Source: Acholeplasma sp.
GTDB lineage: Bacteria > Bacillota_I > Bacilli_A > Acholeplasmatales > UBA5453
Assembly (NCBI GenBank): GCA_036677365.1
Contig: JAVBWN010000006.1
Span: forward strand, 8,919-72,918
Direction of reading: 5' to 3'
DNA: 64,000 bases
This document shows, one piece after another, positions 33,377 to 41,509 of this stretch. The position numbers and the translations under genes are program-made. Each line of letters starts with the position of its first letter. Position 1 is the stretch's first letter. The notes below the pieces were generated by a model, which was given only the letters and a program-made list of their open reading frames with translations, had not been told where the DNA came from and made no database searches.

Positions 33377-33471
33377 AATCAATTTAATCAATCCTAAAAT
33401 CAATAAAATCAATATCAAAATTAAAAATATTGATTAAAAGTGTTGACAACATTGATCAAGGGTAGTATTAT
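33377..33471 (+). promoter_or_regulatory. Promoter with an array of AATCAAT repeats (candidate operator)
   Basis: AATCAAT at 33377, 33386, 33398, 33407; inverted ATTGATT at 33429; TTGACA(33443)-17-TATTAT(33466). Confidence 0.7.
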
Positions 33472-33490
33472 ATGGGTGTAGGTGATGAAA

Positions 33491-33844
33491 ATGAATAAGA
33501 AAAAAGCACTAGCACTCGTGGAAAGAGGACAAATCTCTGTGGGTGCCTACTTAGATTTTAGAGAAAAAGCATTAAGCAAACCTTACAAATTTAAACCAGC
33601 GCGCGGATTTAGATTGGTATTTCTTAAAGGCAACCTCTTATTTCTAACACCGAAGATTCCGTTTTGGACATTCCGTTTCCTAGGTACATTCATCAAACGA
33701 ATTCCAACCGGTGATCAAGTACAGTTCGAGTCATTCAATATCCATGACCTCATCCCGTTATTAAAAACGATTGGTAAGAACAATCGACTCATTGGGGTGG
33801 AATCCCCCAAAGAAAACTTCCTATTTGAAATATGGGGCGTTTAG
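33491..33844 (+). CDS. Hypothetical protein with N-terminal SHOCT-like motif
   Basis: KKKALALVERGQISVGAYLDF; RBS AGGTG supports ATG 33491. Confidence 0.7.
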   Translation: MNKKKALALVERGQISVGAYLDFREKALSKPYKFKPARGFRLVFLKGNLLFLTPKIPFWTFRFLGTFIKRIPTGDQVQFESFNIHDLIPLLKTIGKNNRLIGVESPKENFLFEIWGV

Positions 33845-33856
33845 AAAGGAATACAC

Positions 33857-34225
33857 ATGAGAGACATAACCAAAGCATTTGAACTCATAGGTGCAGACTT
33901 AGTCGTCACCGAAATTCAAAGTAAAAAGAAAGACATTACCGTCAGAGGTGAGTTCCAATTATCGAAGTTTGATTACCTCACCAAAGAACAACAATATTTC
34001 ATCGAAGTCTTCATTAAAAACCAAGGGAACATCAAACAAATTGAAAAAGAACTTGGCATCTCATACCCAACCGTAAAAAAGAGCTTAGAAGAAGTTACTC
34101 AAGCATTAGGGTATAAAGTTGAAGACTCTAAAGACGATGAAAAACGCATGGAAATCTTCGAACGTATTCGCAGAGGCGAACTTACGATTGAAGAGGCAGA
34201 AGCACAACTCAAGAAACTTAAATAG
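33857..34225 (+). CDS. DUF2089 family protein (HTH plus C-terminal SHOCT-like motif)
   Basis: FIEVFIKNQGNIKQIEKELGISYPTVKKSL is the DUF2089 core; tail IFERIRRGELTIEEA. Confidence 0.9.
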   Translation: MRDITKAFELIGADLVVTEIQSKKKDITVRGEFQLSKFDYLTKEQQYFIEVFIKNQGNIKQIEKELGISYPTVKKSLEEVTQALGYKVEDSKDDEKRMEIFERIRRGELTIEEAEAQLKKLK

Positions 34226-34233
34226 GTAAAGCC

Positions 34234-34359
34234 ATGGGACACATCAAATTATTTGATTTAGTGACCAGAGGGGAAATTACACCCAAAGAAGCCGTGAGTA
34301 TCATTAAAAACAAGGAGACCAATTATGAACGACAAATTAAGAATATTAGAAATGCTTAA
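34234..34359 (+). CDS. Unannotated 41-aa SHOCT-like mini-protein
   Basis: MGHIKLFDLVTRGEITPKEAVSIIKNKETNYERQIKNIRNA; AGGT RBS 6 nt upstream; fills the 99-nt gap in the operon. Confidence 0.65.
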   Translation: MGHIKLFDLVTRGEITPKEAVSIIKNKETNYERQIKNIRNA

Positions 34360-34711
34360 AGAAGGCATCATCTCTGTCGATGAAGCCGATAGATTACTAA
34401 AAGCGCTTGAAAAAGAACCAGATAATGCGAAAGTCGAAGTTTTAGTGCCTAAATACAAGACTGATCCAAAGAACTTAATGTTTAAAGTCAGAATCTTATC
34501 ATCCGATGGCGATAAGGTGAATATCAATATTCCAGTAAAATTTGCGAAAACTGCCCTAAAGAGTGGTAAAATTAATTTCAGTGGTAAGTCTGATGTGATG
34601 GAAAACATCGACATCGACGCCATCTTAGAAATGATCGAGGAAGGCGCTGTCGGCGACTTAGTCGATATCACATCCGCGGACGGTGACGTGGTTAAAATCT
34701 GCATCGAATAA
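34325..34711 (+). CDS. SHOCT-like domain protein usually encoded next to DUF2089
   Basis: KLRILEMLKEGIISVDEADRLLKAL; KVRILSSDGDKVNINIP; LVDITSADGDVVKICIE. Confidence 0.85.
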   Translation: MNDKLRILEMLKEGIISVDEADRLLKALEKEPDNAKVEVLVPKYKTDPKNLMFKVRILSSDGDKVNINIPVKFAKTALKSGKINFSGKSDVMENIDIDAILEMIEEGAVGDLVDITSADGDVVKICIE

Positions 34712-34733
34712 TTCAAGAAACTAGGTATAGCAT

Positions 34734-36479
34734 ATGATTTTTGGAAAACACATCAACAAGTACTATCTCAAGTACGCCATCCCGATGATTTTAGGTGTCA
34801 TCGCCTTATTATATGTGGATTATGTGCAAGTCGAAATTCCAAGAATCTTTGCGGGTATCATCGATAAATTAAGAGAAAGCACATTAACAAACACAATCTT
34901 AAACGAGTCTGTCGAAAGACTCGTTTGGATTGTTTTAATTATGGTGATTGGCCGTGTTTTATGGCGTGTATTTGTCTTTGGTTCTGCGAGATTCATTGAA
35001 CATGATTTACGTATGAGCATGTTTTTACACGCTGAAGCCCTCGGTGTGGATTTTTATAAAGAACATAAAGTTGGTGGGTTGATGACCCACTTCATCAATG
35101 ACCTTGAGGCCATCAGACAAGCGTTTGGTCCAGGGATTTTAATGTTGTTTGACTCACTATTCTTAGGTTCAATCGTCATCATTCGTATGACACAACTCTC
35201 TAGAGAAATGACGCTCATCGCTGTCATCCCACTCGCTTTAATGGGTGTGGTCGCGATGTTCATCATTAAGAAGATGAGACTGAAGTATAAACTCAGACAA
35301 GACTCGTTTGAACAGATGAGCGATTTCACACAAGAATCCTTTTCAGGTATGAATGTCATTCGTGCCTTTGTCAAAGAAGTGAAAGAAGCGCTCTTCTTCG
35401 CTGAAAAGAACGACGATTTTTATAAGAAGCACGTCGACTTTGTGAAAACCATGATTTTGATCAACATCGTCATCACCGTATTCATCAACTTGACGATTTT
35501 AACCATCATCGCCTATGGGGCATGGATCGCCATTACTTCTGATTTTACCCCAGGGATGTTAACCGAATATTTTACCTTATTTACAACACTCATTTGGCCA
35601 GTCATGGCCTTATCACAGTTCGCATCCATCCGCAGCCAAGCGGTGGCGAGCTACAAACGTATTCAAACGTTTATGGATGCGAAAGTGACTGTCAAAGACG
35701 AGCAAAACGTAAAACCGTTTCAACCTTTAGAAGGTGCCATCACATTTAAACATTTGGATTTCAGTTATCCGGATGACCCAGAAAGAAAGATATTAAATGA
35801 CATCTCAGTCACCATTGAAAAAGGTGAAATGGTCGGTGTCCTTGGACGTACCGGTAGTGGTAAGAGTACCTTCGTCGATTTATTATTAAGATTATATAAT
35901 GTTAAGCCAGACGCGCTTTATTTGGATGACCATGACATCATGTCTTTATCTATCCATAATGTCAGAGATCAAATTGCTTATGTACCTCAAGATAACTTTT
36001 TATTCTCGGACACCATATTGAATAACATCGGTTTTTCTGAACCAGCGATGCCGGAAGAAAAAGCCAGCTATTATGCAAGACTCGCCAATGTCCATGATAA
36101 CATCATCGATTTTACCCATGGGTATCAAACCGAAATTGGTGAACGTGGGGTCACTTTATCTGGGGGTCAAAAACAACGCATCTCGATCGCTAGAGCACTG
36201 GCGAAAGACGCACCGATTTTGATTCTAGATGATTCTGTATCTGCAGTAGATACCAAAACAGAAGAATCCATCATCAAGCATTTAGAAGAAATCAGACAAG
36301 GCAAAACTACCATAGTCATTGCACACCGCATATCAACCATTAAAAAGATGGATAAGATTATTTTGTTAGACCAAGGTCATTTACTCGATGTGGGTTCACA
36401 CGAAGAACTCCTCAAACGTAATGCACTGTATCAAGAGATGGTTAGAAAACAAGAATTAGAACATATGGTGGAGGGATAG
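34734..36479 (+). CDS. Heterodimeric ABC exporter subunit 1 (TMD-NBD, MdlA/YheI-like)
   Basis: GRTGSGKS, LSGGQKQR, degenerate Walker B ILDDS. Confidence 0.93.
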   Translation: MIFGKHINKYYLKYAIPMILGVIALLYVDYVQVEIPRIFAGIIDKLRESTLTNTILNESVERLVWIVLIMVIGRVLWRVFVFGSARFIEHDLRMSMFLHAEALGVDFYKEHKVGGLMTHFINDLEAIRQAFGPGILMLFDSLFLGSIVIIRMTQLSREMTLIAVIPLALMGVVAMFIIKKMRLKYKLRQDSFEQMSDFTQESFSGMNVIRAFVKEVKEALFFAEKNDDFYKKHVDFVKTMILINIVITVFINLTILTIIAYGAWIAITSDFTPGMLTEYFTLFTTLIWPVMALSQFASIRSQAVASYKRIQTFMDAKVTVKDEQNVKPFQPLEGAITFKHLDFSYPDDPERKILNDISVTIEKGEMVGVLGRTGSGKSTFVDLLLRLYNVKPDALYLDDHDIMSLSIHNVRDQIAYVPQDNFLFSDTILNNIGFSEPAMPEEKASYYARLANVHDNIIDFTHGYQTEIGERGVTLSGGQKQRISIARALAKDAPILILDDSVSAVDTKTEESIIKHLEEIRQGKTTIVIAHRISTIKKMDKIILLDQGHLLDVGSHEELLKRNALYQEMVRKQELEHMVEG

Positions 36480-36480
36480 T

Positions 36481-38286
36481 ATGAAAGACTTTAAAGAAAA
36501 TACAATCACCAAAACCGATTGGCAAATCGTCAAACGATTGGTTTCATACGCGAAGCCTTATCAAAAGAATTTCATCGTCGCTTCACTCTTGATGATCCTC
36601 GATGTTGCAGCATCATCGATAGGACCACTACTCATTGGTTATACCATTCAAATCATCGATAGCAATCAAAGTGTATCCGATAAAATGTTTAATTTCTTAT
36701 GGCTATCGATCCTATTCTTAGGGATAGTCATCGGGGTATCGTTCATCATTTACTATCAAAACTGGCTCTTACAAGAAGCAGGTCAAAAGATTGTCTATGG
36801 TATTCGTGAAAATGTATTCACCCATATCCATACGTTATCAAATGCACAAATCAACCAAATCCCTGTCGGTAAATTGGTCACTAGAGTCAATAACGATACC
36901 AACACACTCTCTGAAATGTATTCATCGGTTATCGTGAATCTCATCAGAAACATCTTGATGATGTTGACGTATTTGGTCATCATGTTCGTCATTGATTTCA
37001 AAGCTACCCTCATCATGTGCCTTGTATTCCCGTTTGTTTTTGTTTCTACCGTTATCTTTAGAAAGCTATCGAGAAACGCTTATCGAAAAGTAAGAAACAA
37101 TGTCTCAAACGTCAACGCGTTTTTATCGGAAAACCTCTCGGGGATGAGACTTACACAAATCTTTAACCAAGAAGAAAAGAAGAAACAAGCCTTTACCCTT
37201 CAAAGTAAAAAACTCAGAAATTCATACTTCAATGAATTGATGGTTTTCGCGATTTATCGCCCACTTATGTATTTATTCTCGATGGCAGCGACCATCACGG
37301 TTTTATACTATTTTTCAACCTCCATCATCGATATGACGCTTGCCGGGGCATCCACAGCAAGCATCATCCTAAGGGTCAGTTTACTTGTCATGATGTATCA
37401 ATACGCGTCACAACTCTTTGAACCGGTTCAACAGCTCGCAGAACAGTTCAACGTCTTACAAAGTGCCATGGCATCTTCAGAAAAAATCTTTGACGTCTTG
37501 GATACCAAACCAGAGATTGAAGATGAAAATGATTCGATTGAACTTGAAAACTTTAAAGGTGAAATCGAGTTTAAAAATGTTTGGTTTAAGTATGTTGAAG
37601 ATGAATGGGTCTTAAAAGATGTGTCATTTAAAGTCAATCCAAACGATACCGTCGCTTTTGTTGGCGCAACCGGTTCTGGTAAGACCACCATCATGAGTTT
37701 AATCGTTAGAAATTATGACATCCAACAAGGTGAAATCTTGATCGATGGCATACCGATTAAAAAAATCAAACGTTCGAGTTTAAGAGCCAACATTGGGCAA
37801 ATGCCACAAGATGTGTTCTTATTTACAGGCACCATTCAAAGCAACATCACGTTAAATGACGAAACGATTTCGAAAGAAAAAGTCATCGAAGCCTCTGAGT
37901 ATGTCGGTGCGAATACATTCATTGAAAAACTCGATGGCACCTATGACCATATGGTAAGAGAACGTGGTAATAACTTCTCTACAGGCCAAAGACAATTACT
38001 CAGTTTCGCAAGAGCTTTGGTCTATGAACCAACGGTGATGATCCTCGATGAAGCAACCGCGAACATCGACTCTGAAACAGAAGCTTTGATTCAAACCTCC
38101 TTAGAAAAGATGATGAAATTATCCACGATGTTGGTGGTTGCACATAGATTATCCACCATCCAACACGCCGATAAGATTGTTGTCATGCAAAAGGGTGAAA
38201 TCAAAGAAGCGGGTACACACCAAGCTTTATTAAAACAAAAAGGTTTGTATTATCATTTATACGAACTACAATATCAAAAGAAGTAA
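36481..38286 (+). CDS. Heterodimeric ABC exporter subunit 2 (TMD-NBD, MdlB/YheH-like)
   Basis: GATGSGKT, degenerate signature FSTGQRQL, Walker B ILDEA. Confidence 0.93.
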   Translation: MKDFKENTITKTDWQIVKRLVSYAKPYQKNFIVASLLMILDVAASSIGPLLIGYTIQIIDSNQSVSDKMFNFLWLSILFLGIVIGVSFIIYYQNWLLQEAGQKIVYGIRENVFTHIHTLSNAQINQIPVGKLVTRVNNDTNTLSEMYSSVIVNLIRNILMMLTYLVIMFVIDFKATLIMCLVFPFVFVSTVIFRKLSRNAYRKVRNNVSNVNAFLSENLSGMRLTQIFNQEEKKKQAFTLQSKKLRNSYFNELMVFAIYRPLMYLFSMAATITVLYYFSTSIIDMTLAGASTASIILRVSLLVMMYQYASQLFEPVQQLAEQFNVLQSAMASSEKIFDVLDTKPEIEDENDSIELENFKGEIEFKNVWFKYVEDEWVLKDVSFKVNPNDTVAFVGATGSGKTTIMSLIVRNYDIQQGEILIDGIPIKKIKRSSLRANIGQMPQDVFLFTGTIQSNITLNDETISKEKVIEASEYVGANTFIEKLDGTYDHMVRERGNNFSTGQRQLLSFARALVYEPTVMILDEATANIDSETEALIQTSLEKMMKLSTMLVVAHRLSTIQHADKIVVMQKGEIKEAGTHQALLKQKGLYYHLYELQYQKK

Positions 38287-38320: not shown

Positions 38321-38385
38321 TAATCCCCTTAAAGTAAACACTAAAAAATAATGAATGACTATAGAAGTTTATAAAAAGGGGATTT
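38321..38385. repeat. Inverted repeat resembling a degenerate IS3/IS150-type end
   Basis: AATCCCCTT...AAGGGGATT inverted pair; CCTTAAAGT-NN-ACAC recurs at 39986-40000; resemblance is from memory only. Confidence 0.3.
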
Positions 38386-38653
38386 TTCGTACATAAAACT
38401 AGACCTGATTTTTTATTTACGAATGTTTCGTCATTTTTAGTGATATTTACAGATGAAACATTTTATTAGTTAAATTATATTCAAATTCATCTAGTATTAA
38501 AAGTTTAAACATGATAGGATTAAAAATAGATTATGTGTGAAAATTTGCAAAATGTATTATGTGGACTGCATGGATGGCAGAGGGGATTGCGGGAAGTTTT
38601 AACCCATTTTCACCAATAACACCAAGGAATCTTTGGCAAGGTAGGTATTAATC

Positions 38654-40180: not shown

Positions 40181-41509
40181 ATGTTAGATTTTAAATTACT
40201 ATCAATTGATGAACAAAAATTATATCTAGAAACACTTCATGGTTATGACCTGAAAGAACTATATGAATTCTTAGATGAAGATGCTCAAGAAACCTTATTC
40301 GATTTATTAGATGATACCCAAAAAGCAGATTTATTGTCTTATCTTAATGTGGATGACGCAGCTCAAATTGTTGAAACCTTAGATGCTGAAGAAACCGCGG
40401 ACATCTTAAATGAGATGGATCCCGATGACGCGATGGACATCATCAATGAACTCGAAGAAGAAACAACCCAAGAGTTCATGGATAAGCTTGAACCTGAACT
40501 CAAAGAAGACATCCTATCTTTAAGGTCTTATGAAGATTTTGAAACAGGGTCAATCATGAATACCGATTTCATCACACTCACGACCGATTTAGATGTCAAA
40601 GAAGCGATGAAAAAACTCATCGCTGAAGCCCCAAAAGTTGAAACCATATCGACTTTATTTGTGGTGGATAAACACGATACCTTTTTGGGTATTGTGCCTT
40701 TAAAGAAACTCATCAAAGCGAAATCACCTTGTGATATCGAATCGATATATGAACCAGCCCTCTTTGTTCTAGATACCGATGACAAAGAAGAAACAGCCAC
40801 CCTCATCCAAGAAGAAGGGATTAACATCTTACCGGTTTTGGATGAAAACCACATCTTAAAAGGCATCGTTACGGTCGATGATGCGATCGATACTTATGAA
40901 GATGAAATGATTGAAGACTTCCAAAAAATGACTGCTTTAAGAGAAGAACACACCGATTCGACATTCTTCAGTGCTTTGAAGCGTTTGCCCTGGCTGGTGG
41001 TATTGTTGTTATTAGCCCTACCCATCGCCAATCTAGCTTTACAATTTGAAGGGGTCTTAAAAGACTATACCATCATCATCATTTTACAACCCCTCATCCT
41101 ATCGATGATTGGGAATGCGGGGACACAGACCTTAACCTTTAGCTTAATCATGATTGCAGATAATGAACCATCGAATGTCGTGAAAAGAAATATATTCTAT
41201 GAGGTCTCTGCCGCTGCTTTTTCCGGGATATTACTTTCAATCATTTCCTTTATCGTTACGATTGGATTCATCATTTTGAACCCGAGTTTATCCGAAGACC
41301 CGATTATTTTCGCAAGTATCGTTGGCTTAAGTGTATTGTTGTCTTTAATCATTGGAACATTCTTCTCAGCGATCATCCCGGTATTGATTAGCAAGACTGG
41401 ATTGGATCCAGCCAGTGCTTCAGGACCCTTATTAACCACCGTGATTGACATCACAACCATATTAACTTATTACGGGATTGCTACCCTCATGATTGGGGTG
41501 TTATTATGA
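40181..41509 (+). CDS. mgtE: Magnesium transporter MgtE (N domain, CBS pair, 5 TM)
   Basis: Acidic N domain, GSIMNTDF, RLPWL, GNAGTQ, DPASASGPLLTTVID. Confidence 0.93.
   Translation: MLDFKLLSIDEQKLYLETLHGYDLKELYEFLDEDAQETLFDLLDDTQKADLLSYLNVDDAAQIVETLDAEETADILNEMDPDDAMDIINELEEETTQEFMDKLEPELKEDILSLRSYEDFETGSIMNTDFITLTTDLDVKEAMKKLIAEAPKVETISTLFVVDKHDTFLGIVPLKKLIKAKSPCDIESIYEPALFVLDTDDKEETATLIQEEGINILPVLDENHILKGIVTVDDAIDTYEDEMIEDFQKMTALREEHTDSTFFSALKRLPWLVVLLLLALPIANLALQFEGVLKDYTIIIILQPLILSMIGNAGTQTLTFSLIMIADNEPSNVVKRNIFYEVSAAAFSGILLSIISFIVTIGFIILNPSLSEDPIIFASIVGLSVLLSLIIGTFFSAIIPVLISKTGLDPASASGPLLTTVIDITTILTYYGIATLMIGVLL

Follow-up and report, generated by a model that had tools for sequence, protein, structure and literature searches.

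A conserved DUF2089 gene triad, its phased operator-like array and its operon with a heterodimeric ABC exporter in Acholeplasmatales

Introduction

The locus described here raises the question of how a small helix-turn-helix (HTH) protein of the DUF2089 family, encoded among short proteins with SHOCT-like helices and directly ahead of an ATP-binding cassette (ABC) exporter, might govern its own operon and that exporter. It lies in a stretch of 64,000 nucleotides (nts) from Acholeplasma sp. (GenBank assembly GCA_036677365.1, contig JAVBWN010000006.1, positions 8,919 to 72,918), hereafter called the window, whose coordinates are used throughout; the named relatives of the locus are Paracholeplasma species. 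The operon contains six open reading frames (ORFs), namely ORF1, the DUF2089 gene, ORF3, ORF4 and the half-transporter genes ABC_A and ABC_B (Table 1). A first-pass annotation had read it as four SHOCT-like proteins that swap partners with the DUF2089 regulator and so control efflux. We found that the conserved unit is a triad of ORF1, DUF2089 and ORF4, that a phased operator-like array precedes it, and that the triad is co-transcribed with the exporter genes in the lineage of the window. With moderate confidence, we consider the triad to be an autoregulated transcription-factor module made of separate polypeptides, whose operon in Acholeplasmatales includes the exporter.

The DUF2089 family is widespread. 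Of 300 genomes in a class-wide sample, 97, about a third, match its Pfam profile, PF09862, and the family is also present in Thermotoga, Deinococcus and Bacteroides. In the literature searched, no study of its DNA target, partners or output was found.

Results

Conservation of the triad and the X domain

About 60 species-level genomes, from Acholeplasmatales, Izemoplasmatales and related Mycoplasmatota, have the gene order ORF1 family-DUF2089-ORF4 family. Among the best 30 DUF2089 loci of the 300-genome class sample, 29 had the complete triad and the 30th ends at a contig edge. The neighbourhood of DUF2089 noted in the first-pass annotation is therefore general as far as the triad is concerned, and it is the triad, not all six genes, that forms the conserved unit.

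The two proteins that flank DUF2089 in the triad are paralogs, as had been suspected. When the ORF1 and ORF4 families were compared by hhalign, using 21-member alignments, the match extended over 98 columns, nearly the full length of both, with a probability of 96.6% and an E value of 6.7e-10. An AlphaFold2 (AF2) model of ORF4 built from 53 sequences, with a predicted local distance difference test score (pLDDT) of 74, has helices at residues 3-13 and 18-29 (pLDDT about 90), followed by a disordered linker and a C-terminal domain of 80 residues, in which a strand-strand-helix unit precedes a helix-strand-strand unit and which has SxDGDxV turns. Hereafter, we call this C-terminal domain X, and the copy in the basic paralog X'. 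ORF1 has a hydrophobic helix and an arginine stripe, and its ratio of non-synonymous to synonymous change (pN/pS) is 0.05. Searched against 1.84 billion proteins, a profile of X alone found 1216 representative clusters. In these, the domain is C-terminal without exception, and the protein lengths fall into three classes of about 80, 125 and 165 amino acids (aa). Pfam and NCBIfam gave no model for X, X' or the mini-ORFs described below, a profile search of PDB sequences gave no relative of X, and neither did a Foldseek search of the PDB with two AF2 models of ORF4 (pLDDT 65 and 74; best E 0.27-0.5, TM-score ≤0.27). A phage or defence reading was dropped because PHROGs and PADLOC gave nothing relevant.

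A genetic argument that X is the signalling part of the regulator is provided by Clostridia (Gudongella, Oscillospiraceae, Gallimonas and others), where X follows an XRE-type HTH (HTH_3, E 1e-15 to 1e-17) in one fused protein. Directly downstream of the fusion gene, the gene of a free, basic X-only paralog of 76-154 aa is found in 10 of 13 loci, often overlapping it, and the recurring unit is therefore HTH + X + X'. The window fits this module, with an X protein and a second, basic X paralog beside an HTH protein. Neither the fusions nor the X' proteins of Clostridia have an N-terminal helix pair (bihelix), and the fusions have no membrane segment either, yet the X/X' pair is kept.

The spacing between DUF2089 and ORF4 is -17 to +13 nts in 37 loci, which suggests translational coupling. 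The distribution of this gap is bimodal, the second group consisting of 25 loci with 99-306 nts, nearly all of which have a small ORF in the gap. Outside the triad, in a sister family of the same order (f3), DUF2089 is followed by a HAAS-Toastrack signalling protein, whose Toastrack part matches DUF4097 at E 3e-20. This fits the notion that DUF2089 as a rule works with a partner whose gene comes right after its own. At two f3 loci (L151:2676-3907 and L152:2856-4110), the DUF2089 gene, encoding a zinc (Zn) ribbon, an HTH and a tail, overlaps the start of the HAAS and Toastrack gene, and SGDI turns in the Toastrack repeats are reminiscent of the SxDGDxV turns of X. The earlier proposal of regulation independent of a two-component system is in line with both the HTH_XRE-X fusions and the HAAS-Toastrack partner.

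A phased operator-like array at the triad promoter

In the window, ATCAAT half-sites at 33378, 33387, 33399 and 33408 form two ATCAAT-N3-ATCAAT dimers placed 21 bp apart, with inverted ATTGAT copies at 33429 and at 33451, the latter within the promoter spacer. The promoter itself, TTGACA-17-nt spacer-TATTAT, has 11 of 12 matches to the consensus. The single promoter with a repeat array in the first-pass annotation was thus recovered as a near-consensus promoter at 33443-33471 with the ATCAAT array. Of 61 triads, 37 have the dimer, in the form ATYAAT-N3-ATYAAT, within the 200 nts ahead of them, where composition-preserving shuffles gave 0.37, and its density was 0.89 sites per 200 nts at triad promoters and 0.008 in AT-rich intergenic DNA of the same loci, a difference of more than 100-fold. 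When 55 promoters were aligned, the half-sites clustered at -14, -23, -35, -44, -56, -65, -74 and -83 from the -35 hexamer, a register that alternates 9 + 12 = 21 bp and keeps to one helix face. Some lineages have extra half-sites in the spacer, over the -10 element or in the leader. The 1.97-Mb genome of the window has only one triad and 16 dimers in all, and the sole 21-bp pair of dimers is located at this promoter.

In Izemoplasmatales leaders (such as those of L034, L039, L040 and L043), further half-sites 9 and 21 bp apart are found at +47 to +69 from the -35 hexamer. The leader is about 70 nts long and these sites are downstream of the transcription start, so that in these lineages arrays bracket the promoter on both sides.

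The simplest reading of the array, judged from its arrangement in the sequence, would be autoregulation by cooperative binding of the DUF2089 protein. We infer the binding itself. As to its direction, repression is the more likely, given a core promoter that hardly departs from the consensus and is overlapped by some of the sites.

The DUF2089 protein

The DUF2089 protein matches PF09862 over profile positions 1-47 of 47 (E 4.8e-24, 84.2 bits against a cut-off of 33.4), and because the conserved phased array co-occurs with the triad, this protein is very probably the regulator. It has no cysteine at all, and the score with the Zn-ribbon profile PF22747 (17.2 bits) is under the cut-off of 27.6. 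The four Zn-ribbon cysteines are kept in 63 of 75 DUF2089 homologs and are lost only in the genus of the window. The replaced positions lie in 33857-33960, where the sister family f2 and Izemoplasmatales keep CxxC...CxxC, and part of the cysteine-less genus has gained ORF3. The HTH segment GNIKQIEKELGISYPTVKK is identical between the window and the Izemoplasmatales copies compared.

Co-transcription with the exporter genes

From 5′ to 3′, the six genes are separated by 12 nts, 8 nts, a 35-nt overlap of ORF3 and ORF4, 22 nts and 1 nt. A scan of the + strand from 33491 to 34734 found no terminator-like site, and a promoter scan of the locus found no separate strong promoter for ABC_A. The ORF coordinates and the scan thus agree with the earlier description of six genes with gaps of 22 and 1 nts and no terminator ahead of the ABC genes. 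The hairpin of the probable terminator downstream of ABC_B has a folding energy of -21.9 kcal/mol and a z-score of -3.9, and none of 200 shuffles folded as well.

Metatranscriptomic contigs from four runs of three studies span the ORF4/ABC_A junction (33529-35178, 34389-35108, 34265-34963 and 34691-34841). Other RNA contigs have 5′ ends at 33486 and 33490, just past the predicted start site, and the cover between the divergent pepT gene and the promoter is almost nil. These are Logan contigs, which tell against co-transcription in so far as they have no strand resolution and may include DNA; contamination with DNA is argued against by the patchy cover over 19 kb, as expected of RNA. Run X27, although labelled as RNA, yielded a contig of 75 kb and was counted as DNA. 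The order pepT/triad/ABC_A/ABC_B is kept in the genus of the window and in seven genomes of a second Acholeplasmatales family, whose ABC proteins are only 51-60% identical. The proposal that the small genes and the ABC pair share one promoter is therefore upheld by the bridging contigs and by synteny in two families, and the triad and the ABC pair are co-transcribed in the lineage of the window.

Two terminator-like hairpins are located within the 5′ part of ABC_A, at 34895-34940 and 35028-35058, and in one of them a U-rich run comes after a stem of 10 perfectly paired bp, AAACGAGUCU/AGACUCGUUU. Contigs from four RNA runs stop at 34963-35178, with lower depth beyond. Internal attenuation or partial termination within the 5′ part of ABC_A is possible.

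Table 1. Features of the triad-exporter operon in the window
Feature	Position	Strand	Description
Promoter and phased operator-like array	33378-33471	+	-35 TTGACA 33443-33448; -10 TATTAT 33466-33471
ORF1	33491-33844	+	117 aa, isoelectric point (pI) 10.3; basic paralog (X') of ORF4
DUF2089-family HTH protein	33857-34225	+	122 aa; Zn-ribbon relic without cysteines, HTH, SHOCT-like C-terminal tail
ORF3	34234-34359	+	41 aa; stand-alone SHOCT-like mini-protein, within a lineage-specific insertion of about 88 nts
ORF4	34325-34711	+	128 aa, pI 4.8; SHOCT-like bihelix, disordered linker, C-terminal X domain
ABC_A	34734-36479	+	581 aa; half-transporter of the BmrC/TmrB/TM287 kind; Asp in place of the catalytic Glu
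ABC_B	36481-38286	+	601 aa; half-transporter of the TmrA/TM288/BmrD kind; canonical Walker B-Glu, signature FSTGQ
Probable intrinsic terminator	38322-38392	+	Stem AAUCCCCUU/AAGGGGAUU followed by UUUU, 3′ of ABC_B

Type of the exporter

Both ABC proteins have the domains ABC_membrane and ABC_tran. The Walker B motif and the signature read ILILDD and LSGGQ in ABC_A, in which Asp takes the place of the catalytic Glu, and VMILDE and FSTGQ in ABC_B. Among solved structures, eukaryotic full-length ABCB transporters outscore the bacterial half-transporters overall, and the nearest bacterial ones are BmrC/TmrB for ABC_A and TmrA/TM288/BmrD for ABC_B. The similarity to known exporters (YheI 5e-97, TmrA 4e-124) suggests that the pair may export drugs or peptides. 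On these grounds, the pair is assigned as an asymmetric heterodimeric exporter with one degenerate ATP site, of the TmrAB/BmrCD type, and its earlier designation as a YheI/YheH-type heterodimer is borne out by the nearest solved relatives and the degenerate-site motifs.

A Clostridia metagenome-assembled genome (MAG; L093:4719-9200) has HTH_XRE-X, a 76-aa X' and two ABC exporter genes on the same strand, as an independent case. In two related Clostridia loci (L098:6043-7467 and L099:5815-7329), an mgtE-like Mg2+ transporter gene lies just downstream of HTH-X, and mgtE also follows the triad-ABC operon in the lineage of the window (40181-41509). This adjacency could be due to chance, or could hint at a link with divalent cations given the acidic DGD turns of X. 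The idea of a divalent-cation sensor, based on these turns and the mgtE neighbours, was not adopted because two related loci are too few.

SHOCT-like motifs of the four small proteins

The motif on which the first-pass annotation based its four SHOCT-like proteins is literally present four times, and the copy in ORF1 of the window is not detectably SHOCT-like when taken alone. ORF4 matches the SHOCT-like profile PF22746 at residues 3-32 with E 8.6e-13 and 47.8 bits, above the cut-off of 27. The DUF2089 tail is below it (E 1.4e-3, 18.6 bits), and it scored 32.4 bits with a profile of tails from other clades, a score that none of 1000 shuffles reached. ORF3 is also below the cut-off, with a weak match (E 0.035, 14.2 bits); it scored 12.5 bits with the DUF2089-tail profile and 10.0 bits with the ORF4 N-terminal profile (0 of 1000 shuffles as good in each case), and 7.9 bits with a third custom profile (1 of 1000). 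ORF1 of the window had no Pfam match, and 153 of 1000 shuffles equalled its score with the DUF2089-tail profile. For its family, 7 of 21 homologs match PF22746 weakly (best E 6.6e-4), and the ORF1-family N-terminal profile matches the DUF2089 tail. Judged from these profile scores, SHOCT-like homology is solid for ORF4, good for the DUF2089 tail, plausible for ORF3 and, for ORF1 of the window, only inherited via its family; the N-terminal bihelix of the latter is degenerate.

ORF3 as a probable young gene

The insertion of about 88 nts that holds ORF3 is confined to the window, three closely related genomes and two contigs from metagenomes. It is absent from P. vituli and more distant relatives; L004-L006 do not have it. 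Compared with the close genome L003, ORF3 has 8 synonymous and 5 non-synonymous differences, where about 2.7 of 13 would be synonymous at random, and its pN/pS is 0.16, against 0.03-0.07 in neighbouring genes; this codon test rests on essentially one diverged pair, because a metagenome scan with ORF4 added only two near-identical copies of ORF3. Both other frames contain stops. ORF3 starts with ATG, has AGGT upstream and lies inside RNA contigs. Among the profiles, it resembles the DUF2089 tail most. An origin by recent DNA duplication is unsupported, as the comparison of ORF3 with the 3′ end of the DUF2089 gene gave only a 15-nt local match, which is not significant.

Small ORFs at the same junction were found elsewhere. 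At L014:6371-6499, and in the same place at L033:4708-4836, the DUF2089 gene is directly followed by a partial tandem copy of its own C-terminal tail, 42 aa long (DUF2089 profile E 2e-9), which may be a snapshot of how a stand-alone mini-ORF such as ORF3 originates. In genus g4 of a second Acholeplasmatales family, f2 (L139, genome G083, and L131, genome G136), ORFs of 47 and 49 aa are present in the DUF2089-ORF4 gap, one of which, IFNMLSTGALDAKEADELLAALE, is clearly SHOCT-like with 20.6 bits; L139 has a 38-aa ORF as well. About 24 Izemoplasmatales loci (L010:6367-6474, L017:6370-6477, L018:6369-6473 and others) have, between DUF2089 and the ORF4 homolog, a conserved ORF of an unrelated family, 34-44 aa long, whose product starts with an aromatic or Cys-rich segment, has ExKxLxEE at its centre and ends in a basic KRRY tail. 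The Izemoplasmatales small ORFs gave no match to the SHOCT-like profiles and for this reason were not merged with ORF3.

We consider, from these sequence comparisons, that ORF3 is probably a real, young gene. The alternative is that it is not a gene but a decaying partial duplicate of the DUF2089 3′ end, or spacer, and that the operon encodes three SHOCT-like proteins, not four. Such a fate would agree with its restriction to the nearest relatives of the window, with the out-of-frame overlap with ORF4, with the lack of a Pfam match above the threshold and with the untranslated-looking duplicate in L014 and L033. Nevertheless, we regard it as the unlikely outcome, because the excess of synonymous differences, the low pN/pS, the closed alternative frames, the ATG preceded by AGGT and the profile scores out of reach of the shuffles argue for a coding sequence, and mini-ORFs recur at this junction in g4 and in Izemoplasmatales.

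Discussion

A proposed module of separate polypeptides

In the module that we propose, the DUF2089 protein would supply the DNA-binding HTH, ORF4 the acidic X copy and ORF1 the basic, partly hydrophobic X' copy. DUF2089 would bind the ATYAAT-N3-ATYAAT sites, which recur at 21-bp intervals on a single DNA face and which adjoin, and in part overlap, the promoter, and X and X' would join DUF2089 and set how strongly the array is occupied. They could be joined either through bihelices that touch one another or through a shared position on the inner membrane surface. A signal, probably membrane-proximal, would act on X and X', and the module would thereby control its own operon, including, in Acholeplasmatales, the TmrAB/BmrCD-type heterodimeric ABC exporter. 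The operon and the role of the regulator are supported for Acholeplasmatales, and the mechanism is plausible in outline. Formation of a protein complex, the signal and the substrate of the pump are what we infer, and partner swapping and an antimicrobial signal, both part of the first-pass annotation, would be pure conjecture.

Comparison with Clostridia gives the strongest reason so far to think that the bihelices unite the proteins: the triad lacks the covalent HTH-X link, and DUF2089 and ORF4 carry the bihelix instead. This argument fits direct contact and a common location of the bihelix proteins alike.

Several points weigh against this reading. The N-terminus of ORF1 of the window gave no SHOCT-like score with any profile outside the ORF1 family, and because the X' proteins of Clostridia also have no bihelix, contact between X and X' may matter more than the helices. 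The first-pass annotation had taken SHOCT as an established oligomerisation module, which it is not: the only experiment on self-association, in the paper that defined SHOCT, gave a negative result (PMC3581485). The array lies mostly upstream of the -35 hexamer, which would suit an activator as well. The ABC genes have a lower and discontinuous RNA depth, with a fall after about 35100-35180, and for this reason transcription may partly stop early, or the 3′ part of the operon may be less stable. Finally, most triads are not followed by ABC genes, and none are outside Acholeplasmatales. The triad-ABC order is absent from Izemoplasmatales, a third family and other Bacilli, and the exporter is thus to be seen as a lineage-specific output rather than the core function of the module.

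Possible membrane location instead of contact

The bihelices could be membrane address tags, each placing its own protein at the inner leaflet independently of the others, with DUF2089 being sequestered and released there and X and X' only sensing the state of the membrane. A comparative study of the phage shock protein (PSP) systems predicts that SHOCT-like domains anchor at the inner membrane leaflet (PMC11237479), and the negative oligomerisation test would suit such tags. The ORF1 homologs of Izemoplasmatales have a near-transmembrane stretch (Kyte-Doolittle 1.75 over 19 residues) and an arginine-striped helix, and the hosts have no cell wall. In contrast, the hydrophobic stretch of ORF1 in the window is weak (1.02), and the X/X' pair is kept in Clostridia along with fusions that have neither bihelix nor membrane segment. 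We therefore treat pure membrane tagging as a rather improbable substitute for the module proposed above.

That module can also be drawn in a more complete form, as a split one-component signalling system of a kind not described before, in which the HTH and two paralogous sensor or assembly domains, X and X', are separate polypeptides that are joined by SHOCT-like bihelical tags and build a cooperative nucleoprotein array on the operators 21 bp apart, ORF3-like mini-proteins act as competitive decoys, and perturbation of the membrane switches on the ABC exporter in the wall-less Acholeplasmatales. Taken with all these parts, the scheme is doubtful, and we put it forward only tentatively.

Heterodimeric ABC exporters are very common in Bacillota, and the triad and the ABC pair could be unrelated neighbours, the ABC genes being reached by read-through and the triad controlling itself or distant targets, as would suit the triads that stand alone, the drop in RNA depth and the hairpins in the 5′ part of ABC_A; this is quite improbable, however, given that the linkage survives 51-60% identity across two families, that the junction is a 22-nt gap bridged by RNA contigs with no separate strong promoter, that HTH-X, X' and an ABC pair come together independently in the Clostridia MAG, and that the genome of the window has no other paired operator array.

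Relation to known systems

The closest context described is that in the PSP study, which divided DUF2089 into Zn ribbon, HTH and SHOCT-like parts and listed "DUF2089 -> SHOCT-like+X" for Bacillus megaterium (PMC11237479). The dyad of DUF2089 and SHOCT-like+X is therefore not new, and the DUF2089 architecture, followed by a SHOCT-like+X gene, is that of the window, as is the general idea of a membrane-associated signal leading to transcriptional output independently of a two-component system. The window differs from the context given there in the loss of the Zn-ribbon cysteines and the addition of a fourth mini-protein. The available part of the study does not mention the upstream X' paralog, the HTH_XRE-X fusions, the operator, the link to an exporter or transcript evidence (PMC11237479), and the first four were not found described in the other literature searched. 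To the known comparative-genomics context, the locus thus adds a defined operator, a third partner, the evidence from fusions and a transcribed output.

LiaX/YvlB (liaXYZ, yvlABCD), the daptomycin- and peptide-sensing effectors of the LiaFSR response, share with ORF4 an N-terminal SHOCT-like helical domain and a small stress-linked operon. Residues 1-51 of ORF4 align to LiaX 1-51 (NF038025) with E 7e-5 and 21.6 bits, far under the cut-off of 350. The C-terminus of LiaX/YvlB is a Toastrack/DUF4097 beta-helix, whereas ORF4 has the 80-residue X domain; ORF4 gave no match to DUF4097 at E≤1, and no beta-helix is seen in the AF2 model. In the operon from 33491 to 38286, no gene for a PspC partner, a LiaFSR kinase or a response regulator is present. 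Dyads of DUF2089 with HAAS-Toastrack, as well as HAAS-PadR systems, are alike in that an HTH protein has its signalling partner immediately downstream, and they differ in that this partner is HAAS-Toastrack, whereas in the window two paralogous partners, X and X', flank the regulator.

The exporter resembles the heterodimeric type IV ABC exporters BmrCD (YheI/YheH), TmrAB, TM287/288 and LmrCD, which also have two adjacent half-transporter genes, with the catalytic Glu replaced by Asp in one protein and a non-canonical signature in the other. The expression of bmrCD in B. subtilis is controlled by a leader peptide, and the pump of the window differs from the BmrCD type in its position behind a protein-based regulatory triad. 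In leaderless-bacteriocin clusters, a small DUF2089 HTH protein (EntDD14 ORF C, BawC) is likewise encoded beside ABC export or immunity genes. These proteins are 89-98 aa long and occur with HlyD/FtsX-type ABC systems and PH-domain membrane proteins, their clusters have no X/X' partners, and in the operon and its immediate flanks no bacteriocin gene was seen.

The locus is a testable package, consisting of a defined operator, a set of three or four proteins and a readable output, the ABC exporter. At least one relative, Paracholeplasma vituli 92-19, carries a strain name instead of a MAG label, and cultures of it may be obtainable. If the bihelices mediate assembly, this would give a function to the widespread SHOCT-like domains.

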